DNA of 64,000 bases, taken from contig JACKGO010000002.1 of NCBI GenBank assembly GCA_020631975.1, positions 7,218 through 71,217 on the forward strand, in the 5' to 3' direction. The translations under genes and the position numbers were made by a program. Below, one piece after another: positions 1 through 58,575 of this stretch; position 1 is the first letter of the stretch, and every line of letters begins with the position of its first letter. Origin of the DNA: Candidatus Nomurabacteria bacterium. GTDB taxonomy: Bacteria; Patescibacteriota; Saccharimonadia; Saccharimonadales; CAIOMD01. The notes under the pieces are model-generated. The model was not told the origin of the DNA. It searched no databases and saw only the letters and a list, made by a program, of their open reading frames with translations.

Positions 1-1287
1 CGCCAGCGTTACAGTCACCCCACACTAAGGTTGTGCCGTTACTCGTTAGACACTGCCCATTAGTACCTCGTGCGAGTCGGGTAGCGTTCGTACCGTTGTA
101 GTACAGCAGATCACCATTCGTCGTCAGACCAGATAGCGTGTTAATGGCACCTTGAGCAGTGGTGGCGCCAGTACCGCCATTGGCGACAGCTAAGGTACCA
201 CCAAGTGTTAAGGTACCACTGGTTGTAATGGCTCCACCAGTGAGGGTTAAGCCGGTGGTGCCACCGCTACCAGATACACTCGTCACTGTACCAGTAGTAC
301 TGCTCGTACCAGCACCAATCGCCGTTCTGAAGCTAGCTGCATCGAGCGCTGAGACGGTGTTATCTGCATTCACTCGTAGGAACGAGATCGCACTAGGGTT
401 CGTTAAGGTAAAGAGGTTGCCACCGACAGTAGTTGCGCCAAGGTTCGTGCGAGCACCAGCGGCGGTAGACGAGCCAGTACCACCATCGGCGATGGCAATA
501 TCTGTGCCGTTCCAGACACCACTGCTAATGGTACCAAGCGTCGTAATGTTACTACTCCCTGCCCACGTACTAAGCGCGGTGTTTTCAACATTCGCTAAAC
601 CAACCTTGCTTTTAGCTAAGCTGGTAATCCAGCTTGGGTCAGCGTAGGAACCACTCGTTAAGACAATGTTGGCAGTTGTAATACCATTTACTTGTGTCGT
701 ACTGAGTGAACCACCCGTGATGGTCGCGCCATTCAGGGTGCCGCCGCTTAGGTTACCGTTCGGCGCGACACTAAAGACAGTTGAAGTATCGCCAGAGTCT
801 CTAACTTGAATGACATCGGCTGTTTGAGCAGCAATAGCTCTAAACTTAGCGGTGACGCTAGTAGTAGCAGCTGACTGCATATTAAAGTTGGCACTGTTTT
901 GGTTGGCGGTAGTGTTCTGGATATAGTTACCACTCCCGCCAGCGTTACAGTCACCCCACACTAAGGTTGTGCCGTTGCTCGTTAGACACTGACCATTAGT
1001 ACCTCGTGCGAGTCGGGTAGCGTTCGTACCGTTGTAGTACAGCAGATCACCATTCGTCGTCAGACCAGATAGCGTGTTAATGGCACCTTGAGCAGTGGTG
1101 GCGCCGGTACCGCCATAGCCCAGGCCAACTACTCCAGTGGTTATTTGGTTACCGTTAATGGCAATTGCTGTATTACCGGCGGCGGTTAAGCGACCTTGGG
1201 CATCCACTGTAAAGGTAGCCACTGTACCAGCACCACCATAGCTGTTAGCACTTACCGTGGTGTTAGCGAGGTTAATGGTAGTACGCT
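1..1287 (-). CDS. Tail-fibre-like surface protein, distal open frame of locus A (no in-frame start; continues past the left window edge)
   Basis: Manual minus-strand translation is stop-free from ~1287 to 1: RTTINLANTTVSANSYGGAGTVATFTVDAQGRLTAAG...GNYIQNTTANQNSANFNMQ...VANGGTGATTAQGAINTLSGLTTNGDLLYYNGTNATRLARGTNGQCLTSNGTTLVWGDCNAG. It uses the same repeat vocabulary as the 3965-aa ORF. It is absent from the ORF track, presumably because it has no in-window stop. Bases ~1-181 recur at ~936-1116. Confidence 0.55.
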
Positions 1288-1342
1288 ACCAAGAGCCACA
1301 CTACCACCGCCACATAAGCCAGTGCCGGCTGTGACGCTGAGG

Positions 1343-2962
1343 CTAGAGTATTAGACCTACTGTTAGGTTCCCATTCGCACCACCATCTGTGATGGAAATG
1401 TTACTACCGCCAGTTAGGACTCGTTCGTTAGTTAGGCTGCCGTCTGGACCAAGTGTGAGGTAGCTAGCGGCAATTGGTGCACTACCACTGCCACCTGTTC
1501 CACAGGTACTACTAAAGCTGAGGTTACCAGCTGCATCACCGACAATACAGTCACCACTACCACCATAGCCACTCGGGAGCTTAAAGGTTAGGTTACTAGC
1601 AATGGCAGCAGACTGCAGTGTAGTAGTGTTGCTAGAGCCATCGTTGAGCACGAGACTACCTAGTTGGGAGGTGGTACCAACGCTGATGGTTGCTCCCTGG
1701 ACGGTGAGGGTACCACTAAAGGTTGGGGAGTTGGCGACATTGATGGTCAGGGTGCCATTGGCACCTGTGTCAGCCACGCTAATGTTAGTGCCAGCGGTTA
1801 AGACTCGTTCACCCGTTAAGGTACCGTCTAGGGCGAGGGTGAGGTAGCTGGCACCAACTGGTGCGCCACCACCGCCTGAGCCACAAGTAGCACTGAAAGA
1901 TAGACCACCTGCTCCGTTGCCAACAATACAGTCACCACTACCACCGTAAGCATTTGGGAGGGTGAAGGTCAGATTGCCGGCAGTGGCAGCAGCTTGAATG
2001 GTAGTGGTGTTGGTACTGCCATCGCTTAAGGTGAGGACACCTGCTTGGGAGGTGGTGCCAATAGACACACTAGCACCCTGAAAGACACCAGTGCCCGCCA
2101 CGGTGAGGTTACCATTGGCGGCCAGTAGCAGTCGGTCATTGCCACTGGCTTGGAACTGCAGTAAGCTACCTGCTCCGGTTTGGTTGATCCGCAGTGCCGT
2201 GTTGGCTGAGTTGACAGTTTGGGTGGCACTAGGTGCCAGTTGGGCCAGTTGGTCAGCTGTAAAGGAGCCCGTGGCTCCTTTGAGGGTTTGGGCTTGTTGG
2301 GCAGCAAAGGCGTATGGTACAGCCGTTACCTTGATGCGAGGGTTCATCTCACCATTCCATGGTGGGGTGGCGGTTTGAGTAGGACCGCCGATGTTCATGC
2401 TGAGCCAGAGTTCTTGGCTCCAGTCTATGGTGCCAGGAAAGGCTGTACCACCAGCCGTGGTATCTGCCAGGCTGACGGTCAGGTAGCCGTTCTTGACCTG
2501 GACACGGTAGTCATTGCCAGGTGCGGCACCATTGGTGTCGTAGCGAGTGTCTGTCCAGAGTAGTGTGCCACCAGAGGCTGCATCGTACAGCTTAAACTGA
2601 ACGTTGTAGTAGCCATCAGGCACCAGGGCGCCTGTGTTGGTGAGGATACGGGCTTGGAAGTTAATGGTGGTGTTAGCGGCTGCTAACGCGTTGGGTGTGA
2701 AGGCGGGCGTATATAGATATACAGCGGTAAGGAGGCTGAGAGTGAGGGTGAACAAAAGAGAGCTGGCAGTGATGGTGCGATGGAATATACGGGTTGAGTG
2801 GGAATTGGTACTACCAGGATGTAGTACGTATGTACATAATTTTGTAAGTCTATAAAAAACAAAAAACACAGACCGACTGATGTGGCTGCTGCGTTGGTGT
2901 GTACAGATAGTGTTGTTTACGCCAGGCTTATTTTTGAACCTATGGCGCAATGCGCTGAGCAT
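1343..2962 (-). CDS. Surface fibre protein locus A, N-terminal ORF (basic leader + hydrophobic segment + conserved N-domain + G/T/S/N-rich repeats)
   Basis: 539-aa ORF. It has a hydrophobic stretch SSLLFTLTLSLLTAVYLY followed by an AxA-type site (NALA/AANTTINFQ). From AANTTINFQ onward it is near-identical to ORF 53133..54860, and its leader is near-identical to ORF 34501..37092. It ends at ...GNLTVGL, where paralogs continue (TNASLSITAGTG...). The homologous frame resumes out of frame at ~1340 and again at ~1287. Confidence 0.7.
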   Translation of the reverse strand: MLSALRHRFKNKPGVNNTICTHQRSSHISRSVFFVFYRLTKLCTYVLHPGSTNSHSTRIFHRTITASSLLFTLTLSLLTAVYLYTPAFTPNALAAANTTINFQARILTNTGALVPDGYYNVQFKLYDAASGGTLLWTDTRYDTNGAAPGNDYRVQVKNGYLTVSLADTTAGGTAFPGTIDWSQELWLSMNIGGPTQTATPPWNGEMNPRIKVTAVPYAFAAQQAQTLKGATGSFTADQLAQLAPSATQTVNSANTALRINQTGAGSLLQFQASGNDRLLLAANGNLTVAGTGVFQGASVSIGTTSQAGVLTLSDGSTNTTTIQAAATAGNLTFTLPNAYGGSGDCIVGNGAGGLSFSATCGSGGGGAPVGASYLTLALDGTLTGERVLTAGTNISVADTGANGTLTINVANSPTFSGTLTVQGATISVGTTSQLGSLVLNDGSSNTTTLQSAAIASNLTFKLPSGYGGSGDCIVGDAAGNLSFSSTCGTGGSGSAPIAASYLTLGPDGSLTNERVLTGGSNISITDGGANGNLTVGLIL

Positions 2963-3240
2963 GTTTTTTTAGATTTTGTTTTAGTTTAGTTGTTTGTGTG
3001 TGTATACCGCTGTTTTGGTTTACAGGTTTTAGTATATCTGATTGGCCAAAGAGAACAAGACACTTTGTATACAAAAATAGAACATAGAAAACAAGTGAAT
3101 AAGTCGTAAATAATGTGTACAATGTGTTGTGTGTACAACATCGTTACAGTAGCAATACAAAAACACAGAGCTACCAACAGTGCTTCACACTGTATACATT
3201 ATTACAACAACAATATTTGAGGTGGTGGATTTATCCACAG
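2963..3240 (-). promoter_or_regulatory. Conserved upstream module of fibre locus A (putative promoter/operator region)
   Basis: The block recurs upstream of all four fibre loci. It contains the perfect palindrome TTGTATACAA followed by AAATAGAACA (3065-3084), two TGTACA palindromes (3116-3121, 3132-3137), the motif CATCGTTACAG, and TTATCCACAG (3231-3240) at its distal end. Confidence 0.5.
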
Positions 3241-3351
3241 TCTAATGTAATGATTATTCATTAAAAACAGCTCTTGTAATTATAAAATGCCGTTTTTACT
3301 GACGTAAAACTACCCTTCATAAGGTCTATGTTCTGTCTATTTAAAAGTGTA

Positions 3352-3657
3352 CTAAACAATTTTACTAATGGTAATAGTTGTTTTGCGTTGGCGATGACCA
3401 CGTGTTTTATGAACGCGTTTTTTTGCTTTATAACGAATAGATACGACTTTATCTGTCTTGACGTCTTGTTCGTCTACCTTTGCAGTAACTTTAGCGCCTG
3501 TTACTACTGGAGTACCAACGAGTGTTTTGTCACCGTCAATCACCAATAGTGGCTCAAATGTCACGGTCTTATCTTCAGAAAGTAGTTCTACTTGCAACGT
3601 GTCGCCTTCTGCCACGATATATTGCTTACCACCGGTGGTGATTACAGCTTTTTTCAT
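3352..3657 (-). CDS. rplU: 50S ribosomal protein L21
   Basis: 101 aa, MKKAVITTGGKQYIVAEGDTLQVE...KVVSIRYKAKKRVHKTRGHRQ. Typical L21 length and motifs. Confidence 0.9.
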   Translation of the reverse strand: MKKAVITTGGKQYIVAEGDTLQVELLSEDKTVTFEPLLVIDGDKTLVGTPVVTGAKVTAKVDEQDVKTDKVVSIRYKAKKRVHKTRGHRQRKTTITISKIV

Positions 3658-3739
3658 TACTATCCTCTTATCATTTATGAATTAGTCAACTGATATGGTA
3701 CCAGATATAGCTCTTTTAGTAAAGAGTAGCTAGGGAGAA

Positions 3740-6619
3740 CTATTTCCCCAAGGCTATTGTTAGTGTTGCACCACCTATTGTAACGCTGTCCTTGTACATA
3801 GGGTTTTGTAATACGTGTGGTGATGACAGCGTCTCTTTAGATATATAAGCTTGATGATGCTCAATAGCCTGGGATAACTTCTTATCAGGAGTACTTAGCT
3901 CACATAAAATTCTATCTTCTACATTAAAATCTGCTTTTTTACGGGCTGATTGCACCTGCCTGACGACGTCTCGTACCATGCCCTCGGCTAACAATTCATC
4001 TGTTAGAGTGGTATCAATCGTTACCTTTGGCTCTTTACCATGCTGTAACATTACTGTTTTAACATTTAGCTCCTCTTGTAAGATTGCTGTGTATGCATCT
4101 GCTAGGTGTGACGGTATTTGTACAGATGTGTTTACCTGTGCGGATGCTAATGGTTGTCTTACTTTTATGCCTGCATCTGCACGTTGTGATAGCCCTATGG
4201 TTATGAGTTCCCTTATCTGAGCCATTTGTTCAATAACAGATGTATCTATAGACTGAAAATGTGGCCAGTCAGTGAGGTGAACCGACTCTTTACCAGTGAG
4301 GTTTCTGTATAGCGCTTCGCTCATAAACGGTGTGATTGGAGCCATAATACGGCTAAGTGTCATTAAAACGTAGTGCAAGGTCGCATAGGCATCTTGTTTG
4401 TCGGTGTCGTTGTCTGTCTTCCAGAATCGTTTACGACTACGGCGGACAAACCAGTTACTGGCATCATCTATAAACGGTAGTATGGGTTTGATTGCACCTG
4501 GCAAATCGTAGTCGCCAAAGCTCTTGTCTACTTCTATGGAGAGTTGGTGTAACCTAGATACTATCCATATATCTAAGAGGTTCTTTAATTTTGATATTTC
4601 TGGTTTATTCTTTGGATTATATTCCCATTTATCTACTTCTGCATACAATGTAAAGAAATCATACATATTCCAAACCATGGCAAGTTTGCGCTGCACGTCT
4701 AAAACTTCTTTATCTTTAAGTGAGAAGTCTTCGCCGTTAAGTAGCGGTGAACCGAGTAACAAGAACCGAAAGCTATCAGCTCCGTATGCATCCATGAGTT
4801 CGTTTGGATCGGTATAGTTTTTGAGTTTTTTACTCATCTTTTTACCATCCGCTGCATTTATAAAGCCTGTACATATTAGGTTCTTAAATGGCGCCTTACC
4901 AAATAAACCTACGTTGACCGCCATTAGTGAGTAAAACCAGCCACGTGTCTGGTCAATAGCCTCTATAATAAAGTCGGCCGGAAAACTTTCTTTAAACTTT
5001 GCGACGTTTTCAAAAGGATAATGGAACTGTGCAAAAGGCATACTACCACTTTCGAACCAACAGTCTATCACCTTACCAATGTGCTTTAGTTCTACGCCAT
5101 CTACTGTAAACGTTACGTCCATGACATTTGGCAAATGATAATCGCTAAGGCTTTTACCTGTTAACTCTTTAAATTCTGCGTAACTGCCTACAACCTTAAT
5201 AACCTCTGTACCATCGGGCCGTTGGCCTTTCCAAACTGGTATTGGAGTGGCCCAGTATCTATCGCGGCTTAAGTTCCAATCTGGAGCAGAATCTATAATG
5301 TTTGCAAAGCGGCCATCCCTTAAGGTGCTTGGTGTCCAGCTCGTTTTACTATTTGCCACAAGCATTTCTTGTTTTTGATCTTGGATATCCATAAACCAAC
5401 TCGGATGTGCCCGGTACATTAATTTAGACCCACAGCGATGGCAGTGTGGGTATTCATGCTGTATATACTCAACCTTCATTGCAGAACCTTCGGCGACCAA
5501 AGTCTTGGCAATTTCTTTGTTTACGGCCCAAATGTTTTGTTCTTGCCAACGGCCAGACGTATAACTACCGTTTTCGTCTACCATTGACACTATTGGAATA
5601 CCAGCTGTTTTACACAGCTCATAATCATCTTCACCGTACGCTGGTGCTTCGTGTACAATGCCCGTTCCGTCTTCGGCGGTTACGAATTCTGCATGCAGTA
5701 CTCTGTGTGCCTCTGGACCATGGTTTTCAAATAACGGATGATACCGCTTGCCAACCAGCTCGCTCCCCTTCACTTTTTTTAACACTTTGTATGCTAATGG
5801 TTGCTTTTTTCCATCTTTAAACACACGCTCTAAGGCCGCATCTGCTACATACACTTTTTTGCCATCGTATTCTACAAGTGCATATGTAAGTTTAGAATGG
5901 AGAGCGATTGCAACATTGGCAGGTAATGTCCATGGCGTAGTCGTCCAGGCAAGTAAGTGTTCATCGGTTTCTTCTAGTTTAAAATACACATACACGCTTG
6001 GGTCAGTATCTACTTGGTAACTATTTTCCATGGCAACTTCACTCTTTGATATCGGGGTGGCATCTTTTGTGCAATACACGAGTATTTTTTCGCCTTCGTA
6101 GATTTTGCCTTTTTCGTATAGCTCTTTAAAAGCCCACCATACCGATTCCATGTATTCGTTATCCATGGTTTTGTAAGCACCCTTAAATTCAACCCAGCGG
6201 CCTATTCTATCAACGGTGTCTTCCCATTCCGTTCCTGTCTGCACCATAGAGGCTCTACACGCATTTACGTAGTCTGGTATGCTAATTTTTACACCAATAT
6301 CTTTTTTATTGGTAATACCAAGTTGTTTTTCTACAAATACCTCAGCTGGCAAACCATGGCAATCCCAACCCCAACGACGCTCAACATGTTTACCTTTCAT
6401 CGTTTGGTACCGTGCAACCGAATCTTTGACTGCAGAGATAAGTAGATGGCCATGGTGTGGTGTCCCAGTTAAGAATGGCGGACCATCATAAAATACCCAC
6501 CTATCTTTATCTGGTCTGTTGGCGACAGATTTGTTAAACGTGTCATTCTGTTTCCAGTATTCAACAACCTCTTTTTCGTATTCAGCTGGCTTTTTACGTT
6601 GCTCTTTTTTGAACTTCAC
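3740..6619 (-). CDS. ileS: Isoleucyl-tRNA synthetase
   Basis: 959 aa with a class I HIGH motif (PHHGHLL) and a KMSKK-type motif (GKKMSKKLKN), plus a CP1 editing-domain-sized insertion. The start is GTG at 6619-6617, preceded by AAAGGA. Confidence 0.97.
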   Translation of the reverse strand: MKFKKEQRKKPAEYEKEVVEYWKQNDTFNKSVANRPDKDRWVFYDGPPFLTGTPHHGHLLISAVKDSVARYQTMKGKHVERRWGWDCHGLPAEVFVEKQLGITNKKDIGVKISIPDYVNACRASMVQTGTEWEDTVDRIGRWVEFKGAYKTMDNEYMESVWWAFKELYEKGKIYEGEKILVYCTKDATPISKSEVAMENSYQVDTDPSVYVYFKLEETDEHLLAWTTTPWTLPANVAIALHSKLTYALVEYDGKKVYVADAALERVFKDGKKQPLAYKVLKKVKGSELVGKRYHPLFENHGPEAHRVLHAEFVTAEDGTGIVHEAPAYGEDDYELCKTAGIPIVSMVDENGSYTSGRWQEQNIWAVNKEIAKTLVAEGSAMKVEYIQHEYPHCHRCGSKLMYRAHPSWFMDIQDQKQEMLVANSKTSWTPSTLRDGRFANIIDSAPDWNLSRDRYWATPIPVWKGQRPDGTEVIKVVGSYAEFKELTGKSLSDYHLPNVMDVTFTVDGVELKHIGKVIDCWFESGSMPFAQFHYPFENVAKFKESFPADFIIEAIDQTRGWFYSLMAVNVGLFGKAPFKNLICTGFINAADGKKMSKKLKNYTDPNELMDAYGADSFRFLLLGSPLLNGEDFSLKDKEVLDVQRKLAMVWNMYDFFTLYAEVDKWEYNPKNKPEISKLKNLLDIWIVSRLHQLSIEVDKSFGDYDLPGAIKPILPFIDDASNWFVRRSRKRFWKTDNDTDKQDAYATLHYVLMTLSRIMAPITPFMSEALYRNLTGKESVHLTDWPHFQSIDTSVIEQMAQIRELITIGLSQRADAGIKVRQPLASAQVNTSVQIPSHLADAYTAILQEELNVKTVMLQHGKEPKVTIDTTLTDELLAEGMVRDVVRQVQSARKKADFNVEDRILCELSTPDKKLSQAIEHHQAYISKETLSSPHVLQNPMYKDSVTIGGATLTIALGK

Positions 6620-23246: not shown

Positions 23247-24308
23247 TTATGCATCTTTGAGGCTTAACGCAATTTTGCGAGCCTCTTTGTTAATCTCTAA
23301 CACTTTAAACTGTTTCTTTTCATCTAGTTTAAAGATTTTTTCTGGGTCTACAGCATCTTCTTCGCCATTGGTAATTTCTGATACATGTACCAATGCTTCT
23401 ACCGCGGGCGTAAGCTGCACAAACGCACCAAATGGTGTAATTCGTGTAATAGTACCTTCTACGGTTTGGCCTTTTTTGAACTGATCAACATCGTGTAACC
23501 ACGGGTCTTCAGATAACTGTTTGATACTCAGGCTCAGCCGGTCTTTATCAATGGCAATCACCTTAGCTTTAATAACTTCGCCATTTTTAACGTATTTACG
23601 TGGGTCTTCTACACGTTCCCAAGATATCTCAGAAATATGAATAAGCCCTTCTATACCGTCTACATTAACAAACGCTCCAAAATCTATGACACCTGTTACG
23701 GCTCCTTCTACAACGTCGCCAACATTTAGTTCGGCAAAACGTGCTTGCATGTCGTCTTTAATAGCTGCTTTTTCGCTAAAGATAAGTTTGTTATCTTTGC
23801 GGCTAGCATCTAAAATGCGTACTCTTAGTGGCTTATTAATAAGCGCATTAAGCTTTTGCAAGATTTCGTCTTTGTCTGCACCACTCACCCGTGGGTAGTG
23901 ATCTGCACTAAGTTGGCTTACTGGCATAAAGCCACGTATACCTTCTAACTCTATTAGTAAACCACCACGATTAGCATCGTATGCGGTTACTTCTATAACT
24001 TCTTCTGCCTCTGCAACGCGGGCGAGTTCATCCCAACCGCGGTCTTTGACAGCTTTTTTAAGGCTGAGTAGTGCGTGGCCTTCTTCCATTTCTGGGTCTA
24101 CCACACTGGCACTTACCACTTGGCCTTCTTCTAATTTTTGATTACCAATTTCTCGGCGCATGACTACACCAATGCCTCGTGGGCCTAGGTCTAGCCAAAT
24201 TTCATGCTTTTTTATGGTGCTGATAGTTGCTTCTACAACATCACCAGCTTTGAGCGCAGTCACTTCGTGCTGCGTTAATAGGTCGTCCATGGTTACCTTA
24301 GTTGACAT
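23247..24308 (-). CDS. rpsA: 30S ribosomal protein S1 (four S1 domains)
   Basis: Repeated S1 OB-fold pattern (G.VV.G.V......G..V.L). The ORF track starts at 24350, but the ATG at 24308 (MSTKVTMDDLL) is preceded by AAGGAG at 7 nt. Confidence 0.9.
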   Translation of the reverse strand: MSTKVTMDDLLTQHEVTALKAGDVVEATISTIKKHEIWLDLGPRGIGVVMRREIGNQKLEEGQVVSASVVDPEMEEGHALLSLKKAVKDRGWDELARVAEAEEVIEVTAYDANRGGLLIELEGIRGFMPVSQLSADHYPRVSGADKDEILQKLNALINKPLRVRILDASRKDNKLIFSEKAAIKDDMQARFAELNVGDVVEGAVTGVIDFGAFVNVDGIEGLIHISEISWERVEDPRKYVKNGEVIKAKVIAIDKDRLSLSIKQLSEDPWLHDVDQFKKGQTVEGTITRITPFGAFVQLTPAVEALVHVSEITNGEEDAVDPEKIFKLDEKKQFKVLEINKEARKIALSLKDA

Positions 24309-24460: not shown

Positions 24461-25018
24461 GCCTATTCATACCTACTTTTCTCATCCAGCAAGAAAGGTA
24501 AACAAAAGTGCCTCGGCGGTTGCAGGCTCTTTATAGCTTCATTGTCAAACTAAACAAACAGCCTCCAGGACTCCTTTTAGTCGGCCCAACCAAATAGTAT
24601 AGATCAGGTTGGGCTTGGCTGTCGGCTTTCTTGTTGTTTATTTGCCATTCATCTATCAGGAGTCTACAAAGCCAACTGCGCCCCAGGGCGCATAAAAAGA
24701 AAATAGTTCATTTACCATCCGACAGCTGACGGATGGCTGGGTCTGGGCATATCCTCCTCGTACAGATTAGGATGATGTAAAACGTATCATGGCCAAGACA
24801 AAAAGGTGTTGAAGCCGGCTATTCATTGATAAATAAGAAAAAGCCGGAAAGTTCTTTTTGTGCCATGTGGGTTTTACTATCAGCCTAGTAAGATGAGGAG
24901 GCTGCCCAGCGCTTTTGTTACAACTTTTGGCGGTAAAAGTTGTACGTTACATAAATAAAGTAGAATAAGCTATTTGTTTACTTTTCTTGCTGGATGAGAA
25001 AAGTAAGTATGTATAGGA
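24461..25018 (+). ncRNA. Structured non-coding element R1 (bounded by ~50-bp inverted repeats; paralog of R2)
   Basis: No ORF of 60 aa or more. 24461-24511 is the near-perfect reverse complement of 24968-25018 (core TACTTTTCTCATCCAGCAAGAAA[A/G]GTAAACAAA). Many internal hairpins are present (GCCCAACC/GGTTGGGC, GCGCC/GGCGC, CCATCCG/CGGATGG, CCGGCT/AGCCGG). The 3' ~230 nt aligns with 26826-27150. The strand was chosen only because the element abuts the plus-strand ROK gene. Confidence 0.4.
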
Positions 25019-25051
25019 TTCTTTGTGTAGTACGTGTGGTAAGATAAAAGA

Positions 25052-25864
25052 ATGATATTAGCAATAGACATTGGGGGGTCAAAAACACTCATTGCCCCAT
25101 GCGACGAACAAGGTAATCCAGTACAAGAAATTAAGTTTCCTACGCCACAAAAATATAGCGATTTTAAAAAAGAATTGGCTGCTAACGTTGTGGCAATAAC
25201 AACTGATTATAATCTGGTAGTGGCTGCTGTACCTGGCAAGCTAGACAGGCAAAATGGCATTGCCCTTGCCTTTGGCAATTTGCCATGGAAGAACGTACCC
25301 ATTCGGGCAGATATCGCCAAAATTACTGGCAAAAAAACACTCATAGAAAACGATGCAAACTTGGCTGGTCTTTCAGAAGCAAACCGTATAAAACCACTAC
25401 CACACGTCGCGCTGTACATAACTATTAGTACTGGTATCGGAACCGGCGTCATTACAGACGGTGTGCTAGACCCTGACTTTTTTGACGCAGAAGGTGGCAA
25501 TATGCTGCTGGAACATGAAGGCAAATTACAAATATGGGAAAAGTTCGCAAGCGGCAGAGCCATTGTTGCAAAATATGGCAAACGTGCATCAGAAATAAAT
25601 GACCCAAAAGCGTGGCAAGACATAGCCAAGCTATTTGCCATTGGTATCGTAGATCTTACATGCGTTCTTGACCCAGATATCATTATTATAGGCGGTGGCG
25701 TAGGTACTCATTTTAAAAAATATGGTGCCTATTTACAGAGTTACATTAAAGAAATAACACCGGTGTTAGTAGCCACACCAAAAATCGTGCCTGCACAAGC
25801 AGCAGAAGAAGCTGTCGTGTATGGGTGTGCGGTACTTGCAAAACAGTATGCCCAGCGTAGCTAA
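25052..25864 (+). CDS. ROK-family sugar kinase (glucokinase-like)
   Basis: 270 aa, N-terminal ILAIDIGGSKT, ENDANLAGLSE, and a second phosphate motif IIIGGGVG. Confidence 0.85.
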   Translation: MILAIDIGGSKTLIAPCDEQGNPVQEIKFPTPQKYSDFKKELAANVVAITTDYNLVVAAVPGKLDRQNGIALAFGNLPWKNVPIRADIAKITGKKTLIENDANLAGLSEANRIKPLPHVALYITISTGIGTGVITDGVLDPDFFDAEGGNMLLEHEGKLQIWEKFASGRAIVAKYGKRASEINDPKAWQDIAKLFAIGIVDLTCVLDPDIIIIGGGVGTHFKKYGAYLQSYIKEITPVLVATPKIVPAQAAEEAVVYGCAVLAKQYAQRS

Positions 25865-26318
25865 TGTCTTATCGGTCCTAAAAACACAGTACCCTAACGT
25901 GAATTTTGTAAAGGGCAACAAGTTTGCGTGGTCGCCCAGTAATAAAACTGTGACCTACCATATAACCAATACAAATGATACGCAGTCTGCTTGGGCACTT
26001 ATACACGAGGTCGCCCACGCTAGCCTTAACCACATAGACTATAAAAGTGATGTCGATCTTTTACGACATGAGGTCGCAGCGTGGCAAGAGGCAAAGACCA
26101 TGGCGCTTGAGCTTGGTGTTCCTATAGATGAAGACCACATTCAAGATTGCCTAGATACATATCGCGACTGGTTACACAAACGCGCAACCTGCCCTTCTTG
26201 TACTGTTGTAGGGTTGCAGCGTAGTAACGGCACGTACGGCTGTTTTAATTGCCAAACCAGCTGGAAGGTCCCATCTTCGCCACTGTGCCGCGTGTCCCGC
26301 ACAATTGTCACCAGTTAA
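25821..26318 (+). CDS. Putative zinc metallopeptidase (HExxH, ImmA/IrrE-like) with C-terminal zinc ribbon
   Basis: LIHEVAHASLNH (HExxH) plus CPSC...CFNC. It overlaps the ROK 3' end; an alternative start is the Met at 25848. Confidence 0.55.
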   Translation: MGVRYLQNSMPSVANVLSVLKTQYPNVNFVKGNKFAWSPSNKTVTYHITNTNDTQSAWALIHEVAHASLNHIDYKSDVDLLRHEVAAWQEAKTMALELGVPIDEDHIQDCLDTYRDWLHKRATCPSCTVVGLQRSNGTYGCFNCQTSWKVPSSPLCRVSRTIVTS

Positions 26319-26825
26319 TTATGAATAGTTAGTATGGAATCATCTAGCGTCATTTAATAATTTGGTAGATTTCACTTATTAATACTTGTTTAAGCAACAA
26401 AACTGTCGAGAGGAATACTAGTACTCTTATCTATTTTTGTAATCCTACTTTGCATGCTATAGTAGGCAAACCACCGCAATGTATTCTCTTTCTTTGTCTG
26501 GTCAAAATACCCTATCCAACTTTATGCGCTAAAGTTGGGCAAAGCACCGGGGCTGCGTTTTACCTATGCGTGCACTATGGATAACTATAACAACTGCAAA
26601 AAGAATCCGTCAGTAGACGGACAGGCTCCACCCTAGCTTTATTACTTCAGATAATGGTGGCTTAACACCTTTTTGCTTATAAGTTGTTATTGTTACCGAT
26701 TGCATCCTGGGTAAAGCCGATGCCCCGGACCCCCATGCGCCACTTGTGACGCTTAGAAGAATACCTTCTTTGTTTGTGCCGATAGGCACAAAGGGCATCT
26801 TCTTTGCATAGTGATTTAGATGCCG

Positions 26826-27150
26826 TATTTATGACATGTCCAAGGCAAAAAGATGTTTGAGCAATTTATTCTGAAGTAAAAAGCAAATTGTTAGTTCTTT
26901 TTGCGATATGTCAGAAATACTGGCAAGTACGTCGTTGCAAAGAAGCGCCGAGGCTTTTTGTTACTTTTTAGCCGGCAGAAAAAGTAAGCAAATACTTTTG
27001 TGCCAATGTACTCATGTATCAATAGATAAGAACTGCGGTGCTACGCCCAGCGCTTTTACGCAACTTTTGGCGGTAAAAGTTGCAAAGGATCAGTCTAAAT
27101 ATGCTATTTTTATCCGCTAGCTGACAGACTGTTAGAAAAAGTAAGTAATA
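26826..27150 (+). ncRNA. Structured non-coding element R2 (paralog of R1 3' part)
   Basis: It aligns by eye with 24786-25018. The block GCCCAGCGCTTTT(3-4 nt)CAACTTTTGGCGGTAAAAGTTG (27045-27082 vs 24904-24942) is near-identical. Hairpins at equivalent positions have different sequences (CAATTT/AAATTG here vs CCGGCT/AGCCGG in R1; GGCATCT/AGATGCC vs CATATCC/GGAT(G)ATG). The only ORFs here are short and unconvincing. Confidence 0.35.
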
Positions 27151-27252
27151 ATTCTTGGAAAGCAGAGTAGAATTAAATGCATGTTTGAAATAATTGGTTT
27201 TAGCATAATTATATTGACTTTTTAGCAATAGCGTGTTAGATTAGTGTTTATA

Positions 27253-27295
27253 GAGGGTGTTCTCTGTCTATGCAGGCAGATGGCACTCTTTTTTT
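27253..27295 (+). terminator. Hairpin + T7 immediately upstream of the KGG gene RBS (terminator or attenuator)
   Basis: Stem TCTGTC/GGCAGA (27263-27280) with outer GAG../..CTC pairing, followed by T7 (27289-27295). AAGGGAGGA and ATG follow within 30 nt. Confidence 0.45.
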
Positions 27296-27321
27296 ATTTA
27301 GTAATCAAGGGAGGATACTAA

Positions 27322-27519
27322 ATGGCAGGTACAATAACAGGCGGTAAAAGTGCCGCTGCGACAAACAAGGCTAAATACGGCAAAGATTTTTATGCACGTA
27401 TTGGCGCAATGGGCGGCAAAAAAGGCACAACTGGTGGCTTTGCAGCCAACCGTGAGCTTGCTCGAACAGCAGGCGCAAAAGGTGGCCGTATTAGCCGCCG
27501 CACAAAAGCTACTAAATAG
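27322..27519 (+). CDS. KGG-repeat stress-induced protein
   Basis: 65 aa, ...GGKKGTTGGFAANRELARTAGAKGGRISRR.... Glycine/lysine KGG-type repeats. Strong RBS GGGAGGA. Confidence 0.8.
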   Translation: MAGTITGGKSAAATNKAKYGKDFYARIGAMGGKKGTTGGFAANRELARTAGAKGGRISRRTKATK

Positions 27520-34500: not shown

Positions 34501-37092
34501 TTAAGAAACCTTTAGTTGAACCACTAGCTGCTTGGCCGTTAGCGTAATCAAGGGATATAACGCCGGCGGCATCGTTAAAGTCGGCGGCTGTAAAGGTAGC
34601 AGCACCTTGGTAGTGCCATTAGCTGCGGCATCGGCAATAGTTAGAGCACCAGTCGTAGCACTAAGTGACAATGCTCCACTAGCACTGACAGCTACCGTAC
34701 CAGAACCGTCAGGTAGAGTAATAGTTCGAGCAGTAGCACCTAGTGTGGTTAAAGCTTGAAGAGTAATAGTGCTAGAACCAGCACCGGAACTTCTAAAGAC
34801 AACTCCACCATTATTAGAACCAGTTGTACCAAGGGTTAGAGCATTAGCTGCAGTGAAGGTGTTAGCAGCACTAAAGCTGTTAGCTTGGTCTTTGTAAGCA
34901 ACATTACTTAGTGTGCCGCCAGTATTAATGTTGGCGCCATTTAATAGAATGCTAGTTGTAGCATTAAGAGTGGCAGCAATACCAGTACCAGTACCAATAT
35001 TAAAGTTAGTGTTCTGGGCTGTACCTGGTGTAGTACCTTGAGCTTGGATATAGTTGGCCGAACCAGAGCTAGCTGCAAATGCGGTACAAGTAATGGTATC
35101 TCCTAGAGCAGTAATAGCGTTACCAGCACTACAGGCAGCTGGGTAATTGTTTAGAGCAGTCCAGTCAACTGTACTGCCAGAACCAATAGTTAGGGTGTCG
35201 TTAATATATGTATCTGTGATGACACTACCCTGCCAAGTACCACTAGTAATAGTGCCAGTAGCGGTAATAGCGCTTAAGTTACCAGTAGTTAGAATAGTAC
35301 CGGTAGCATTAGGTAGAGTGTAGGTTCTGTTAGCAGTTAAATCGGCGCTGGTAATAGTACCGGTAAAGCGACCGGCTCCACCAGTTGTGACACTGAGTAC
35401 TAATAGATCATCTGTAGCTGTAGCTGTGTCTACGGTTAGACCGCGGATGGTAGCTCCGCCAGTGAAGCTTGGGTTGTTAACCACATTAACCGTCAAACTC
35501 CCATTAGCCCCACCATCAGTGATGCTGATGTTAGAGCCGGCGGTTAGAACTCGTTCGTTAGTTAGGGTACCGTCTAAACCTACGGTAATGTAGCTAGCAG
35601 CAATTGGAGCGCTACCACTACCACCTGTACCACAAGTACTGCTGAAGCTTAGGTTACCACTAGCGTCACCAACAATACAGTCACCACTACCGCCGTAGCC
35701 ACTAGGTAGTTTGAAGGTTAGGTTACTAGCAATAGCAGCTGACTGGAGAGTGGTCGTGTTAGAGCTACCGTCGCTTAGGACTAAGCTACCAGCTTGGCTG
35801 GTAGTACCGACACTAACGGAAGCTCCTTGGACAGTTAGAGTACCGCTAAAGGTTGGAGAGTTAGCGACATTGATGGTCAAGGTGCCGTTGGCACCTGTGT
35901 CAGCGACGCTGATGTTAGTGCCAGCACTGAGCAAGCGTTCGTTAGATAGACCAGAGTCATAAGCTAGGGTGAGATACTGAGCATTGTTAGGAGCACTACC
36001 ACTACCACCTGCTCCACAGGTACTGCTGAAGCTAAGAACACCAGTGCCGTTAGTGACTAGACAGTCACCGCTAGTGCCGTTAGTAGCTGGGAGGGTGAAA
36101 GTCAGGTTAGAGCTAATGGCCGCTGACTGGATGGTGGTGGTATTACTGCTACCGTCACTAAGAGTGAGAACACCAGCTTGAGTAGTAGTACCAATACTGA
36201 CACTGGCGCCTTGGAAGACACCAGTACCAGCTACGGTTAGGTTACCGTTAGCTGCTAGCAGTAGTCGGTCGTTACCACCAGACTGAAGCTGGAGTAAGCT
36301 ACCAGTACCAGTTTGGTTGATCCGCAGTGCCGTGTTGGCTGAGTTGACAGTTTGGGTGGCACTAGGTGCCAGTTGGGCCAGTTGGTCAGCTGTAAAGGAG
36401 CCCGTGGCTCCTTTGAGGGTTTGGGCTTGTTGGGCAGCAAAGGCGTATGGTACAGCCGTTACCTTGATGCGAGGGTTCATCTCACCATTCCATGGTGGGG
36501 TGGCGGTTTGAGTAGGACCGCCGATGTTCATGCTGAGCCAGAGTTCTTGGCTCCAGTCTATGGTGCCAGGAAAGGCTGTACCACCAGCCGTGGTATCTGC
36601 CAGGCTGACAGTCAGGTAGCCGTTCTTGACCTGGACACGGTAGTCGTTGCCAGGTGCGGCGCCATTGGTGTCGTAGCGAGTGTCTGTCCAGAGCAGTGTG
36701 CCACCAGAGGCTGCATCGTACAGTTTAAACTGGACGTTGTAGTAGCCATCAGGCACCAGGGCGCCGGTGTTGGTGAGGATACGGGCTTGGAAGTTAATGG
36801 TGGTGTTGGCGGCTGCTAACGCGTTGGGTGTGAAGGCGGGCGTATATAGATATATAGCGGTAAGGAGGCTGAGAGTGAGGGTGAACAAAAGAGAGCTGGC
36901 AGTAATGGTGCGATGGAATATACGGGTTGAGTGGGAATTGGTACTACCAGGATGTAGTACGTATGTACATAATTTTGTAAGTCTATAAAAAACAAAAAAC
37001 ACAGGCCCGCTTATGTGGGATCTGTGCCTAAGATATCTGTTGGTAGGTGCGACGTTGCGGCCTTTTAGCCAATAACGCCATTTGCGCAGCAT
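34501..37092 (-). CDS. Locus B N-terminal ORF (leader + conserved N-domain + repeats)
   Basis: 863 aa. The leader MLRKWRYWLKGRNV... is identical to the locus D remnant. The N-domain AANTTINFQARILTNTGALVPDGYYNVQFKLYDAASGG... is shared with A and C. Confidence 0.7.
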   Translation of the reverse strand: MLRKWRYWLKGRNVAPTNRYLRHRSHISGPVFFVFYRLTKLCTYVLHPGSTNSHSTRIFHRTITASSLLFTLTLSLLTAIYLYTPAFTPNALAAANTTINFQARILTNTGALVPDGYYNVQFKLYDAASGGTLLWTDTRYDTNGAAPGNDYRVQVKNGYLTVSLADTTAGGTAFPGTIDWSQELWLSMNIGGPTQTATPPWNGEMNPRIKVTAVPYAFAAQQAQTLKGATGSFTADQLAQLAPSATQTVNSANTALRINQTGTGSLLQLQSGGNDRLLLAANGNLTVAGTGVFQGASVSIGTTTQAGVLTLSDGSSNTTTIQSAAISSNLTFTLPATNGTSGDCLVTNGTGVLSFSSTCGAGGSGSAPNNAQYLTLAYDSGLSNERLLSAGTNISVADTGANGTLTINVANSPTFSGTLTVQGASVSVGTTSQAGSLVLSDGSSNTTTLQSAAIASNLTFKLPSGYGGSGDCIVGDASGNLSFSSTCGTGGSGSAPIAASYITVGLDGTLTNERVLTAGSNISITDGGANGSLTVNVVNNPSFTGGATIRGLTVDTATATDDLLVLSVTTGGAGRFTGTITSADLTANRTYTLPNATGTILTTGNLSAITATGTITSGTWQGSVITDTYINDTLTIGSGSTVDWTALNNYPAACSAGNAITALGDTITCTAFAASSGSANYIQAQGTTPGTAQNTNFNIGTGTGIAATLNATTSILLNGANINTGGTLSNVAYKDQANSFSAANTFTAANALTLGTTGSNNGGVVFRSSGAGSSTITLQALTTLGATARTITLPDGSGTVAVSASGALSLSATTGALTIADAAANGTTKVLLPLQPPTLTMPPALYPLITLTAKQLVVQLKVS

Positions 37093-38415: not shown

Positions 38416-39033
38416 TTACGGTGTATTGGCTATAAATTGCTTGATCACGTTAAGATCATCATGATACGCCTTATAATCTGCTACAAAATCGGCATAATTA
38501 ACATCATCAAATAGTTCTAAAATCTTATTTGACTTAACCCAGTCTGCAGTTTTATTGCCCAAATAATATGGCAAGCTAGACCATTCGTAGGTATTATAGT
38601 TATCTGGGTTTAAATGAATGTAACGGCTGATGTGTAGTAGCTGCGCATCATCAGTAATTCTTACTGCACGATACCTCTGCTGAAACACTGGCCCGACCCG
38701 TTTGTATTTTTTGTTAAAGTACATGCCGTACGCTGTGGCCAAACTCCGCATAAAATTTGTAATTGCTGTGGGGTCTTCTTTTTGGTAAATGAACAAATGA
38801 AAGTGGTTGCTCATTAAGCAATAAGCCAGTAGATCAACTTCGTTATAAAAATTTGGGTGGTTCGTTCTATTTGCCTTCTTCACTTTTTTTATACCAAGAT
38901 ACCGCTTTAATAGCGCTAAGAAAACAATAAAGTCTTCTTGATCCCTAAATATACGATTTTTATTTACACCCCTGTTATAAAAATGATAGTAACTCTCGGC
39001 TGCGTACTGCTTAATAAGGTTTCTTCCCGGCAT
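38416..39033 (-). CDS. Y1 (HUH) transposase-like protein, IS200/RayT-like
   Basis: 205 aa with the HUH motif NHFHLFIY and a C-terminal catalytic-Tyr helix ISRYIHLNP. Its stop abuts the start of the hydrolase gene (38416/38415). Confidence 0.75.
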   Translation of the reverse strand: MPGRNLIKQYAAESYYHFYNRGVNKNRIFRDQEDFIVFLALLKRYLGIKKVKKANRTNHPNFYNEVDLLAYCLMSNHFHLFIYQKEDPTAITNFMRSLATAYGMYFNKKYKRVGPVFQQRYRAVRITDDAQLLHISRYIHLNPDNYNTYEWSSLPYYLGNKTADWVKSNKILELFDDVNYADFVADYKAYHDDLNVIKQFIANTP

Positions 39034-57949: not shown

Positions 57950-58321
57950 ATATTAGTCCCGCTCTATACTAGACTGCAGGGACTTATATCGACGTCCATC
58001 AACGATAGATATTGTTACAAAAAGCATTATGACAAACACAAATAGCTAGTTAATTACTGCCAATTTCTCGTACGATGCAACAAAACGATATTACATCATA
58101 CGAGATGCATAAAAAGTCGATGGATCTATTAGTACGCTTTGGCTGAATGTATTGCTACACGTACACCTTGCGCCTATCAACCTGATCGTCTTTCAGGGAT
58201 CTCTATAGGGAAATGCAATCTTGGGATTAGTTTCGCGCTTAATATGCTTTCAGCGCTTATCTAGACCGCACTTAGCTACCCAGCTATGCCTGTAGGTCAG
58301 ACAACTGGTACACCAGCGGTG

Positions 58322-58354
<33 letters not shown>

Positions 58355-58390
58355 TTCCCTCACATTTCCTATTGTCCACATCGGATATAA

Positions 58391-58424
<34 letters not shown>

Positions 58425-58452
58425 ACGTACCTCTTTAACCGGCGAACAGCCG

Positions 58453-58483
<31 letters not shown>

Positions 58484-58542
58484 AGATGAGCCGACATCGA
58501 GGTGCCAAACAGCGCCGTCTATGTGAACTATTGGGCGCTATA

Positions 58543-58575
<33 letters not shown>

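Follow-up and report, generated by a model that had tools for sequence, protein, structure and literature searches.

R1 and R2 are two of the three copies, in the 64-kb window (the whole stretch of DNA analysed here), of a composite palindromic repeat restricted to a few related species of Saccharibacteria. At the heart of each unit lies a long hairpin (LH) of 165-185 nt, found in the window at 24741-24912(+), 26789-26955(+) and 26545-26729(-); the last is an inverted third copy, which an earlier note on this DNA, describing R1 and R2 as two structured elements upstream of the ROK and KGG genes, did not include. Six further LH units were found in related Saccharimonadales contigs, and all units are confined to the rpsA-ROK or the HExxH-KGG intergenic region, where each is directed towards its neighbour gene. 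The copies are direct and inverted duplicates inside these two regions, and the units are accessory DNA upstream of the rpsA, ROK and KGG promoters, outside those transcription units. We consider that the family may well be a locus-bound palindromic repeat with REPIN- or MITE-like behaviour, a reading in which our confidence falls a little short of even.

Anatomy of the repeat unit

The likeness of R1 and R2 noticed by eye was confirmed by local alignment (score 140 vs. 61 ± 7.7 in shuffles, z about 10). The homology spans 24745-25017 and 26790-27160, and any likeness further left was not significant (z about 2). Within it, the core at 24904-24942 and 27045-27082 is identical at 13/13 and 22/22 bases on the two sides of a variable linker of 3-4 nt; shuffled sequences gave no match equal to it. 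The core hairpin with the loop GGCGGT is also real (10 bp in R1, 9 bp in R2). However, the core is not a motif in its own right, as its GCCCAGCGC is the 3′ foot of the LH and pairs with the CTGGGC of GGTCTGGGCAT. The elements also begin further upstream than had been proposed, at about 24672 and about 26725.

Each unit consists of two small hairpins, the LH with its complementary variable arms, a T-run and a short AT-rich hairpin. In the LH, a GC foot (CYGGGC/GCCCRG) and a centre (CAAAAAGG/TTCTTTTTG) are conserved, and the arms between them vary in sequence while keeping their complementarity. The GC-rich foot stands directly before a run of three to six Ts in 9/9 units, and the order LH, T-run, short hairpin is likewise seen in 9/9; the short hairpin that closes the unit has the pattern xxACTTT..AAAGTxx.

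In R1, the two small hairpins (24677..24734, plus strand; H0, TGCGCCCCAGGGCGCA, at 24677-24692 and H1, ATCCGACAGCTGACGGAT, at 24716-24734) are conserved, with stems compensated in R3 and R7. The LH (24741..24912; covariance model (CM) score 171.9 bits) forms 57 Watson-Crick and four G-U pairs, with the foot CTGGGC/GCCCAG, the conserved centre ACAAAAAGG/TTCTTTTTGT and the apical stem CCGGCT/AGCCGG. Directly after the foot come the T-run (24913..24916) and short hairpin A (24919..24944; TACAACTTTT GGCGGT AAAAGTTGTA), which is the hairpin of the core and whose stem is compensated in R3 (GCTCCTTTT/AAAAGGAGC). Module B of R1 follows at 24973..25017, with its hairpin at 24978-25006.

R2 lies in an insertion of about 845 nt (E2, 26324..27167) between the HExxH gene and the KGG promoter, as compared with species that have a spacer of 140-150 nt; the insertion contains R9 and R2 head to head, and the orthologous region in L050 measures 961 nt. 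The R2 LH (26789..26955, plus strand; CM score 140.3 bits) has the apical stem CAATTT/AAATTG, and after GCGCCGAGGC-TTTTT comes short hairpin B (26961..26987; TTACTTTTT AGCCGGCAG AAAAAGTAA). What had been taken for a 95-nt insertion in R2 (26900-26997) is no simple insertion, but holds the true 3′ arm of the R2 LH with its foot, T-run and short hairpin. Behind it, 26995..27083 comprises a 3′ arm orphaned from a second LH unit (26995-27053, with GCCCAGCGC at its end; 84% identity with the 3′ arm of R5 in L055), TTTT and another short hairpin A (27060-27083). R9 (26545..26729, minus strand) has the foot CCGGGGC/GCCCCGG and scores 44.9 bits (E = 3.6e-11). After its LH and TTTG, a short hairpin (CCAACTTTA TGCGC TAAAGTTGG; 26516..26538, minus strand) is compensated in L050 (CCTACTTT/AAAGTAGG).

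Pairing in the long hairpin is maintained by compensatory change

Each of the nine units folds as a single rod with a dG of -56 to -76 kcal/mol, its arms joined by 53-62 Watson-Crick pairs (fold z = -9.5 as RNA and -10.2 as DNA for R1, and -4.9 for the R2 LH). Over 47 pairs tested, pairing is kept in 94% of the cells, vs. 40-49% with slid partners, and both sides have changed in 19/47 pairs, vs. 3-7 in the slid controls; these values were reached by 0/500 shuffles. When all nine units are taken together, compensation is seen in 21/34 pairs and extends to the foot (U-A to G-C). The elements are structured, as had been proposed, and the claims that they are non-coding and unlike described RNA families were also supported: a search of 5.8 billion proteins gave no homologue for the ORFs that cross them, and Rfam 15 returned nothing relevant at gathering thresholds or at E<=5.

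The individual helices put forward earlier fared less uniformly. CCGGCT/AGCCGG in R1 and CAATTT/AAATTG in R2 do form a truly compensated stem, but it is the apical stem of a far longer hairpin. The second helix (CATATCC.. in R1, GGCATCT.. in R2) is not conserved as a local hairpin, since its bases belong to the 5′ arm of the ~170-nt hairpin and pair ~100 nt downstream (e.g., CCTCCTC with GAGGAGG). In the third, the R1 stem TTACTTTTCT/AGAAAAGTAA is real, but the supposed R2 equivalent CTATTTTTA/TAGAAAAAG is imperfect, and the hairpin at 26961-26987 is a better counterpart.

Selection would maintain the hairpin for its ability to pair when single-stranded, as RNA or as ssDNA, a pattern that REPINs and ERIC-type MITEs also show. 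A strand bias able to tell the two apart was not found in the G-U pairs (38 vs. 29) or in the summed dG (-598 vs. -574 kcal/mol). The core blocks exceed the genes beside them in conservation (e.g., TGGCCAAGACAAAAAGGTGTTGAAGCCGGCT, 31/31 identical between R1 and R3), and this suggests a sequence-specific function beyond pairing.

One possible, though doubtful, explanation is that the LHs are the genes of a new family of structured sRNAs of about 170-250 nt; equally doubtful is its corollary that the T-run behind the GC foot marks the 3′ end of such RNAs and that they act in trans by means of an A-rich apical or a conserved internal loop. LhrC and Qrr are multi-copy sRNAs to which the side-by-side paralogous copies could be likened. 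The strong covariation with invariant unpaired and central blocks fits this explanation, as do the GC foot and T-run, which resemble an sRNA 3′ end, the conserved U-G (5/5) and G-U (7/9) pairs on the element strand, and the persistence of copies at unchanged loci in species that have diverged to 65-82% nucleotide identity in their genes. A weak promoter-like sequence (TTGCCA-17-TACAAA) ends 7 nt before the first hairpin of R1. However, no consistent promoter was found for the units, head-to-head pairs leave only 60-71 nt between their 5′ ends, which is occupied by hairpins, and the complementary strand folds nearly as well. Moreover, close relatives dispense with the elements, truncated and orphan half-units are tolerated, and Rfam holds no match.

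The palindromes might instead act as double-stranded DNA, as sites for a dimeric regulator or nucleoid protein forming operator arrays at the three promoters. Palindromes of the form xxACTTTT..AAAAGTxx occur only in the element-bearing regions (5 observed vs. 0.32 expected), and the palindromes lie 35-125 nt upstream of the promoters. Their stems, however, switch with compensation (CAAC to CTCC; CCGGCT to CAATTT to CCATCATT) and their spacers range from 4 to 12 nt, and therefore it is complementarity that is conserved and no recognition sequence. As a palindrome of 170 nt is no operator either, we regard this explanation as very improbable.

The units lie upstream of the predicted promoters

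The earlier note saw in R1 and R2 cis-regulatory leaders or riboswitches of ROK and KGG, with a hairpin followed by T7 before KGG as the expression platform of R2. Every unit is indeed oriented towards a downstream gene, the elements are structured with covariation, and a hairpin plus T-run looks like an expression platform. However, the predicted promoters sit between the elements and the genes. The predicted extended -10 of ROK (TGgTAAGAT, 25037..25045, plus strand) is located downstream of R1 and 6 nt before the ATG; there is no SD, so that ROK is apparently leaderless, and R1-less relatives (L021, L024 and L025) share this -10 geometry. KGG similarly has its own predicted promoter and 5′-UTR outside R2 (27214..27324, plus strand), which 10 species conserve whether or not they have R2: the promoter TTGACT-17-TAGATT (27214-27242) precedes two hairpins, one terminator-like with T7 (27253-27296) and one showing the SD in its loop (27296-27323). 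The hairpin with T7 thus falls outside R2 and is conserved in species that lack it. More generally, the flanking promoters are conserved even in relatives without units.

Two forms of the riboswitch idea found no support. A riboswitch in a 5′ leader does not fit with R1 lying upstream of the ROK -10 and R2 upstream of the KGG promoter, both promoters being predicted, and a riboswitch with a stable gene-family association does not fit with units of one type that face rpsA, ROK or KGG interchangeably and are missing in close relatives. In addition, R1 is inverted in some strains, Rfam gave no match, and the single rod, whose largest internal loop, close to the apex, measures 7-8 nt by 4-5 nt, has no multi-helix junction typical of ligand pockets. 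In summary, the leader reading is largely refuted, and we rate a leader role for R1 and R2 as highly improbable.

If the units are repeats, as we favour, their most likely cis effect would be that the GC foot and the T-run stop or process transcripts reading in towards the neighbouring promoter. Such a unit would serve as an insulator or a terminator, without ligand sensing, and the hairpin-plus-T-run may, as a predicted activity, terminate read-in transcription. The rod of 55-65 bp far exceeds any typical intrinsic terminator.

Segment E1 occurs in both orientations

R1 is part of a 556-bp segment, E1 (24462..25017), at which the homology with relatives stops (about 24452) and resumes (about 25035), and which is absent as a segment from related species. 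It is bounded by 45-nt inverted repeats (24462-24506 and 24973-25017) that are 93% complementary and correspond to two oppositely oriented short-hairpin modules. The right repeat (IR-R) is module B of R1, and the left one (IR-L, minus strand) is an inverted copy of module B facing rpsA, whose reverse complement aligns to module B of R2, R3 and R4 and which has a GC box, CGCCGAGGC, at 24510-24518 (minus strand). Among 16 conspecific contigs, E1 is in orientation A in 10 and in orientation B in six. Four of the inverted ones (L003, L005, L010 and L017) carry an IS in E1 and two (L011 and L019) do not; in L019, a 2503-nt flank is 100% identical to that of A contigs. The IS of the L003 lineage, inserted at 24623..24628, is 1042 bp long and encodes a 309-aa transposase (HTH_29/HTH_32/rve_3), and its ends (GAAAATTCCCAC..AAATGCGAC) are unrelated to the E1 repeats. 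The inversion would most likely arise by recombination between the 45-nt repeats, without a dedicated invertase.

Alternatively, E1 could be a programmed phase-variation switch (inverton), flipped at palindromic 10-9-10 sites within the 45-nt repeats by a site-specific recombinase encoded elsewhere, which we think improbable. Both 45-nt repeats hold TTACTTTTCT-N9-AGAAAAGTAA, both orientations occur among genomes that are at least 98.8% identical, one B flank being identical to A contigs, and several contigs break in or at E1. L019 could, however, be a chimera of co-occurring strains, and L011 has a 6-nt deletion in the rpsA-side repeat. A tyrosine or serine recombinase was not found among the window ORFs scanned, which were all but several, the 3965-aa one among these, nor among the precomputed Pfam assignments within ±10 kb of the locus in relatives, and the short-hairpin spacers of 4 to 12 nt are unlike recombinase core sites. 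A promoter-like sequence inside E1 (CCGACA-18-TATACT, 24625->24596) points outward at the left end, and an effect in which this promoter-like end and the hairpin/T-run end are swapped between rpsA and ROK is just as improbable. The sequence matches the consensus at 9/12 positions, which is at chance level (9 such matches found vs. 6.9 expected in the region), and rpsA and ROK each keep a promoter outside E1.

We likewise give little credence to the combined proposal that the LHs are a new functional class of structured RNA in Saccharibacteria and that E1 is a true invertible switch. If it held, the essential rpsA and the ROK sugar-kinase operon would swap which of them faces the read-out end of E1 and which the hairpin/T-run "stop" end whenever E1 flips, and this would be the first phase-variable regulatory switch described in a CPR bacterium, built from the short-hairpin module of the RNA element itself.

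Distribution among relatives

Homologues of the elements exist in other species, and none of the copies found is scattered at unrelated positions, contrary to what the earlier note had named as outcomes that would speak against its elements. Units face rpsA in L052 and L060, ROK in the window, L055 and L060, and KGG in the window and L050. Units are missing in L021-L025, L051, L053 and L070 and also in L054, where a remnant persists, and in relatives with 86-93% identical S1 the intergenic region spans only 140-264 nt and has no element. Between species, the copies differ through deletion, inversion and the reshuffling of modules, and the breakpoints fall at the short hairpins. In L060, two units stand head to head; L054 retains a hybrid hairpin left by deletion or inversion, L059 is a mosaic, and the L052 contig stops within the element.

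Covariance-model searches found no copy outside the two intergenic regions in the 64-kb window and about 236 kb of other loci, an extent that amounts to about 10% of one genome and, in the relatives, to one neighbourhood. Core scans of genome and metagenome contigs gave no other full element, returning chance matches, the species itself and, in the unrelated contig L045, one match limited to the short hairpin. At the borders of E1 and E2, no clean direct repeat indicating a target-site duplication was seen against empty sites; the E2 borders show a loose 13-nt similarity (26311-26323 and 27168-27180). As the copies are undispersed and no target-site duplication was found, transposition is a conjecture, and the units could instead be a functional RNA that resides at these loci.

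The element regions could also form part of the chromosomal replication origin, since the cumulative GC skew is lowest at 24-26 kb, rpsA diverges from ROK, and the non-coding DNA here is extensive and hairpin-rich. However, DnaA boxes are not enriched (19 vs. 16.6 expected), a single box with 1 mismatch falls in the two regions, close relatives wholly lack the elements, and the minus strand holds the rRNA operon and most genes on both sides. We regard an origin as barely conceivable.

Comparison with known systems

6S RNA is a rod of some 180 nt that opens into a large central bubble and is present in all relatives. It was rejected as an identity of the LH, which gave no RF00013 match at E<=5, has its largest internal loop near the apex and is absent in close relatives. 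Compared with intrinsic (Rho-independent) terminators, the GC-rich closing stem of every unit abuts a T-run in the same way, but the stem has 55-65 bp rather than 5-15 bp and a second, AT-rich hairpin follows the LH. E1 resembles invertons such as fimS and the Bacteroides PS loci in having a few hundred bp between inverted repeats, near genes and in both orientations. It differs in that an adjacent recombinase or a convincing internal promoter was not found and its repeats copy a repeat module.

BIMEs and the pneumococcal BOX elements are intergenic mosaic repeats built from modules. The present family may resemble them in its varying number and order of hairpin modules, here the LH with short hairpin A, B or d, and the orphan half-units and hybrid hairpins are examples of this. 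The module sequences are unrelated, however, and the copy number here is very low.

REPINs are REP doublets that form hairpins, with conserved ends and a compensated spacer, and are mobilised by RAYT Y1 transposases (Bertels & Rainey 2011, PMC3116915). The LH is similarly one long hairpin in non-coding intergenic DNA, with conserved ends and a spacer that is variable yet complementary through compensation, and remnants and clusters occur among its units too. The window also contains a RAYT-like Y1_Tnp gene (38416-39033(-); PF01797, E = 3.3e-9), whose protein is 52-58% identical to those of REP-flanked Y1_Tnp genes in relatives. However, REPINs measure 70-110 nt and occur as tens to hundreds of dispersed copies, whereas the LH, at 165-185 nt, is conserved at its centre too, and all its known copies lie in two adjacent intergenic regions. 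REPINs also share their REP with the RAYT flanks, whereas the RAYT-flank hairpin of the window (TGCTATCGGGTCCAACCCGATAGCA), which was found there only at 39064 and 39126, is unrelated to the LH and the short hairpins.

ERIC/IRU, Correia and other MITEs are intergenic imperfect palindromes of 100-400 bp, and MITE and ERIC hairpins affect mRNA processing (reviewed in PMC3184786). MITEs are marked by target-site duplications, occur as many dispersed copies and often have a parent IS whose ends match theirs, and no such feature was found for the LH family. The likeness lies in the terminal inverted repeats, given by the pairing LH arms and by E1 with its 45-nt repeats, in the long RNA hairpin that would form once transcribed and may alter mRNA processing or termination, in presence or absence that varies between close relatives, and in the tie to plastic regions and IS elements.

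Two spacers are filled by units of a long hairpin

The look-alike elements R1 and R2 each lie in a long intergenic spacer: R1 in the 743-nt spacer (IG1) between rpsA, encoding ribosomal protein S1 (23247-24308, minus strand), and the ROK kinase gene (25052-25864, plus strand), and R2 in the 1003-nt spacer (IG2) between the gene of a 165-aa protein with an HExxH motif (25821-26318, plus strand) and that of the 65-aa KGG stress protein (27322-27519, plus strand). Since Saccharibacteria genomes are very small and tightly packed, non-coding spacers of 0.7-1 kb are conspicuous. The S1, ROK and HExxH proteins are also found in NCBI Candidatus Saccharibacteria (Saccharimonadales) MAGs, including GCA_041402185.1. 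The HExxH protein, encoded downstream of ROK, has a C-terminal CxxC..CxxC pair and no match in Pfam, and its length differs among strains (165, 156, 139 and 122 aa).

The likeness of R1 and R2 is significant (24745-25017 against 26790-27160; local score of 140 versus 61 ± 7.7 in shuffles), and the alignment of the left halves of IG1 and IG2 is not (z about 2). Within the window, the 38- or 39-nt core reported in the earlier note is confined to 24904-24942 and 27045-27082. The five window occurrences of ACTTTT-N-AAAAGT all fall within IG1 or IG2, against 0.32 occurrences expected by chance.

Each copy folds as a single long hairpin (LH), in which the ~170 nt between the feet form one irregular rod without a junction. 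The foot, or closing GC stem, is made by the upstream G-rich block GGTCTGGGCAT, which pairs with a block, GCCCAGCGC, that the earlier note had already singled out. The R1 fold (24741-24945) reaches -85.9 kcal/mol; its z is -9.5 when folded as RNA and -10.2 when folded as DNA, and the R2 fold (26789-26990) has z = -4.9. All units share one grammar, in which the LH is followed by T3-6 and this by a short AT-rich hairpin (type A, B or d). A third window unit, R9 (26545-26729, minus strand), was matched by the covariance model (CM) and stands head to head with R2. The short hairpins recognised before are real, and the stem CCGGCT/AGCCGG (CAATTT/AAATTG in R2) is real too, as the apical stem of the LH rod; the second hairpin of that list, in contrast, is not a local hairpin but part of the LH 5′ arm. 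Similarly, what had been taken for a 95-nt insertion in R2 contains the 3′ arm of R2 itself, with its foot (GCGCCGAGGC), T-run and short hairpin, and is followed by the orphan 3′ arm of a second unit (26995-27053); a copy in another species has a 3′ arm with 84% identity to this one.

An anti-terminator pairing of CCCCGGACCCC with GGGTCTGGG was dropped, since the box is the foot of the inverted neighbour R9. A pseudogene or small protein was also rejected, the ORFs over R2 and over R7 (a further unit) having neither homologues nor Pfam matches.

A 31-nt hairpin (CTTGCAACTTTTGGCGGTAAAAGTTGCAAAG) almost identical in sequence to R2's short hairpin A was seen in an unrelated metagenome contig (L045, 464-494), between convergent genes and just past the stop codon of a 346-aa gene, possibly a sugar isomerase as judged from its sequence by eye. 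Because this copy stands by itself, the short hairpin may also occur alone, as a REP singlet or a terminator would.

Pairing is maintained through compensatory changes

In an alignment of five units, 94% of the cells of the 47 tested pairs can pair, compared to 40-49% when the partners are slid by 1-3 columns. Both sides have changed in 19 of the 47 pairs (3-7 in the slid controls), and none of 500 shuffles matched the observed pairing values. With nine units aligned, 21 of 34 consensus pairs are compensated. Compensation includes the foot (CUGGGC/GCCCAG to CGGGGC/GCCCCG) and extends to short hairpin A (ACAAC/GTTGT to GCAAC/GTTGC to GCTCC/GGAGC), and the apical stem is paired in each of the six or more sequence versions seen. 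Since pairing is kept through compensatory changes, it is the hairpin itself that is maintained, and the repeat's pairing is clearly under constraint. The central intuition of the earlier note, a conserved fold, was therefore right, and the observation goes beyond its estimate: a 170-nt covarying hairpin is present in three copies in the window and has homologues in other species.

The main rival explanation is a structured sRNA family, in which the fold would be kept as an RNA. Two conserved G-U positions on the element strand give a hint, no more, in this direction. An excess of G-U pairs in an early whole-element count shrank, on the long hairpins, to 38 on the element strand versus 29 on the complement (summed dG of -598 and -574 kcal/mol, respectively), a difference that does not separate RNA from DNA or one strand from the other, and is not used as evidence. 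Against this rival we prefer a locus-bound hairpin repeat. Xer/dif-like and attC-like sites were set aside on reading the sequences, as spacers differ in length, arm sequences are replaced with compensation, and no short hairpin comes close to attC length.

The units found lie in two spacers and are absent from close relatives

Contigs of relatives were located using S1 homologues as anchors. Five of them (L021, L024, L025, L051 and L053; S1 86-93% identical) have no element; in this group IG1, where rpsA and ROK are adjacent, measures 163-264 nt and the HExxH-KGG spacer 51-150 nt. Homology between the window and the element-less relatives ends at ~24452 and restarts at ~25035, and again ends at ~26306 and restarts at ~27202. 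In L053 the ROK-HExxH-KGG block is inverted (839-2931), with rpsA facing KGG across 592 nt, and in L025 the KGG cassette is inverted (3442-4510).

The remaining contigs differ in what their spacers contain. One unit faces ROK in L055-L058, and two head-to-head units, one toward rpsA and one toward ROK, occupy an 875-nt IG1 in L060-L064 and L066-L068. L050 has two units, R10 and R3, in IG2 and 281 nt of unrelated sequence in IG1; in L052 the contig end falls inside a partial unit facing rpsA. The IG1 of L054 (313 nt) contains a short hairpin of hybrid type, L059 is a mosaic, and in L070 and L071 IG1 is instead occupied by a 23S_rRNA_IVP gene (115 aa; 2411-2758 in L070).

The earlier note had proposed searches with Rfam and with a CM. 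No relevant Rfam family matched the elements, whether at gathering thresholds or at E<=5. With five units as its basis, the CM detected nine distinct ones, including homologous units in other species, all of them in IG1 or IG2, and had no other match in the 64-kb window, the element-less relatives or viral contigs. The core 18-mer had 17 single matches in 185,579 species genomes, with unrelated flanks, as expected by chance, and the core had only chance matches in viral contigs. Its 20-mer had four matches in JGI metagenomes: two in the same species, one by chance (L046) and one to the short hairpin only (L045).

Two further window features were noted. The 23S rRNA match at 58108-62041 is 3934 nt long; as it exceeds the 2925-position model, the gene would have a ~1 kb insert (intron or intervening sequence), and inserts in rRNA genes are frequent in CPR. 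A hairpin, AAAGGAGCC-CGT-GGCTCCTTT, is present in three identical copies (2261-2281, 36394-36414 and 54156-54176).

Predicted promoters lie downstream of the elements

ROK has no SD and an extended -10 (TGgTAAGAT) 6 nt before its ATG (25037-25054). An extended -10 (TGnTAnnAT) 6-8 nt before the ATG, with the SD absent, is found in four species (the window, L021, L024 and L025), and the geometry is the same in relatives without R1; judged by this arrangement, ROK appears to be leaderless. The best promoter match for rpsA (24436 to 24408, predicted) is in the conserved part, outside E1, the 556-bp segment (24462-25017) that contains R1.

Ten species, some with R2 and some without, conserve the predicted KGG promoter (27214-27242), the hairpin followed by T7 and a hairpin that presents the SD. 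The region 27187-27324 reads TTGACn-17/18-TGnTAnATT, then AGAGGGTG, a perfect hairpin of species-specific sequence, GGCACTC and T5-7; the 5′ UTR continues with ATTTAGTA, a loop with the SD AAGGGAGGA, then TACTAAAT and G. Each species has its own sequence for the inner stem of the terminator-like hairpin. The hairpin and T7, previously suggested to be an expression platform of R2, thus belong to KGG's own leader, since they are conserved in species without R2. With its terminator-like and SD-presenting hairpins, this leader, which has no Rfam match, is a stronger candidate than R2 for a cis-regulatory RNA.

A leader or riboswitch reading of R1 and R2 is unsupported: the predicted promoters lie downstream of the elements, one element type faces three unrelated genes, close relatives lack it, and its fold is a single rod.

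GC skew is negative over 4-24 kb and zero to positive over 26-56 kb, turning at ~24-26 kb, and the minus strand carries most genes on either side of the turn. Giant genes (27.9-37.1 kb and 39.7-51.6 kb) may explain the turn. A replication origin at the spacers was rejected: the skew minimum is suggestive, but relatives can do without the elements and DnaA boxes show no enrichment.

The segment containing R1 occurs in both orientations

E1 is bounded by 45-nt inverted repeats (24462-24506 and 24973-25017), which are two opposed copies of short-hairpin module B, 93% complementary. The segment has the window orientation in ten conspecific contigs and is inverted in six, with flanks 98.8-100% identical. 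Four of the six inverted contigs carry a 1042-bp IS at 24623-24628 and two, including the NCBI genome, do not. In one inverted contig, L019, the 2503-nt ROK-KGG flank is 100% identical to that of window-orientation contigs, so the flip would be recent, recurrent or heterogeneous within samples; alternatively, L019 may be a chimera of co-occurring strains.

A programmed inverton, with a dedicated invertase turning the segment, is a minor rival: both orientations and the terminal repeats would suit it; against it, no recombinase gene was found among the ORFs scanned. Marker analysis allowed no reading of the crossover, as the repeats are mosaic and L011 has a 6-nt deletion in one of them. We consider recombination between the repeats more likely than a dedicated invertase.

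The IS (L003, 1758-2799) encodes a 309-aa transposase with HTH_29/HTH_32/rve_3, is flanked by a duplication of about 6 bp and lies inside E1 in one strain lineage. In L005 and L010 a different gene lies left of the IS, suggesting that a rearrangement has occurred or that the assembly was joined here. In L044 (Ga0116152_10029456, 1-3685), E1 and the IS have ROK on either side; a sample containing both orientations, or two strains, would be expected to yield such a palindromic assembly.

Discussion

This analysis shows that a previously undescribed hairpin repeat fills the 0.7-1 kb spacers. The repeat probably also gives rise to the local inversions, deletions and broken assemblies around rpsA. 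Our overall reading, which we hold tentatively and with slightly less than even confidence, is that of a locus-bound, recombination-prone hairpin repeat whose foot and T-run may stop read-in transcription. The CM and the module grammar provide a concrete model to mask or annotate these spacers, and warn against annotating them as riboswitches or genes. The repeat may provide initial access to DNA inversion in CPR, and is a manageable system in which to ask whether hairpin repeats resembling REPINs can be kept as locus-bound elements.

Among known systems, an intrinsic terminator resembles the unit in its GC foot and T-run and differs from it in that the LH stem is 4-10 times the usual length. 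A RAYT-like Y1_Tnp gene (38416-39033, 205 aa, PF01797) adjoins a Beta-lactamase2 gene in the window, and upstream of it one 25-nt hairpin (TGCTATCGGGTCCAACCCGATAGCA) is present in two identical copies, at 39064 and 39126; a link to the elements was rejected, these hairpins being unrelated to the LH and short-hairpin elements. In L021 and L054, homologous Y1_Tnp genes lie between inverted TTGCAAGGACGGTTCTTGCAA repeats, a REP-RAYT arrangement in Saccharibacteria. Derivation of a MITE from the strain IS was rejected as well, since the IS ends mismatch.

In behaviour, the closest match is the REPIN, with ERIC-type MITEs second. REPINs are intergenic hairpins with conserved ends, in which compensatory changes on both sides are reported to be common (PMC3116915), and for MITE hairpins an influence on the fate of mRNAs and a role as markers of plastic regions are reported (PMC3184786). 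Within the window and the other loci searched, the elements described here differ from both in dispersal and copy number and in having no matching REP or IS. As to a target-site duplication, comparison of the element borders with empty sites showed no clean direct repeat, only a loose 13-nt similarity (26311-26323 and 27168-27180). Hence, this likeness, together with these differences, places the element among the palindromic intergenic repeats, as a new form.
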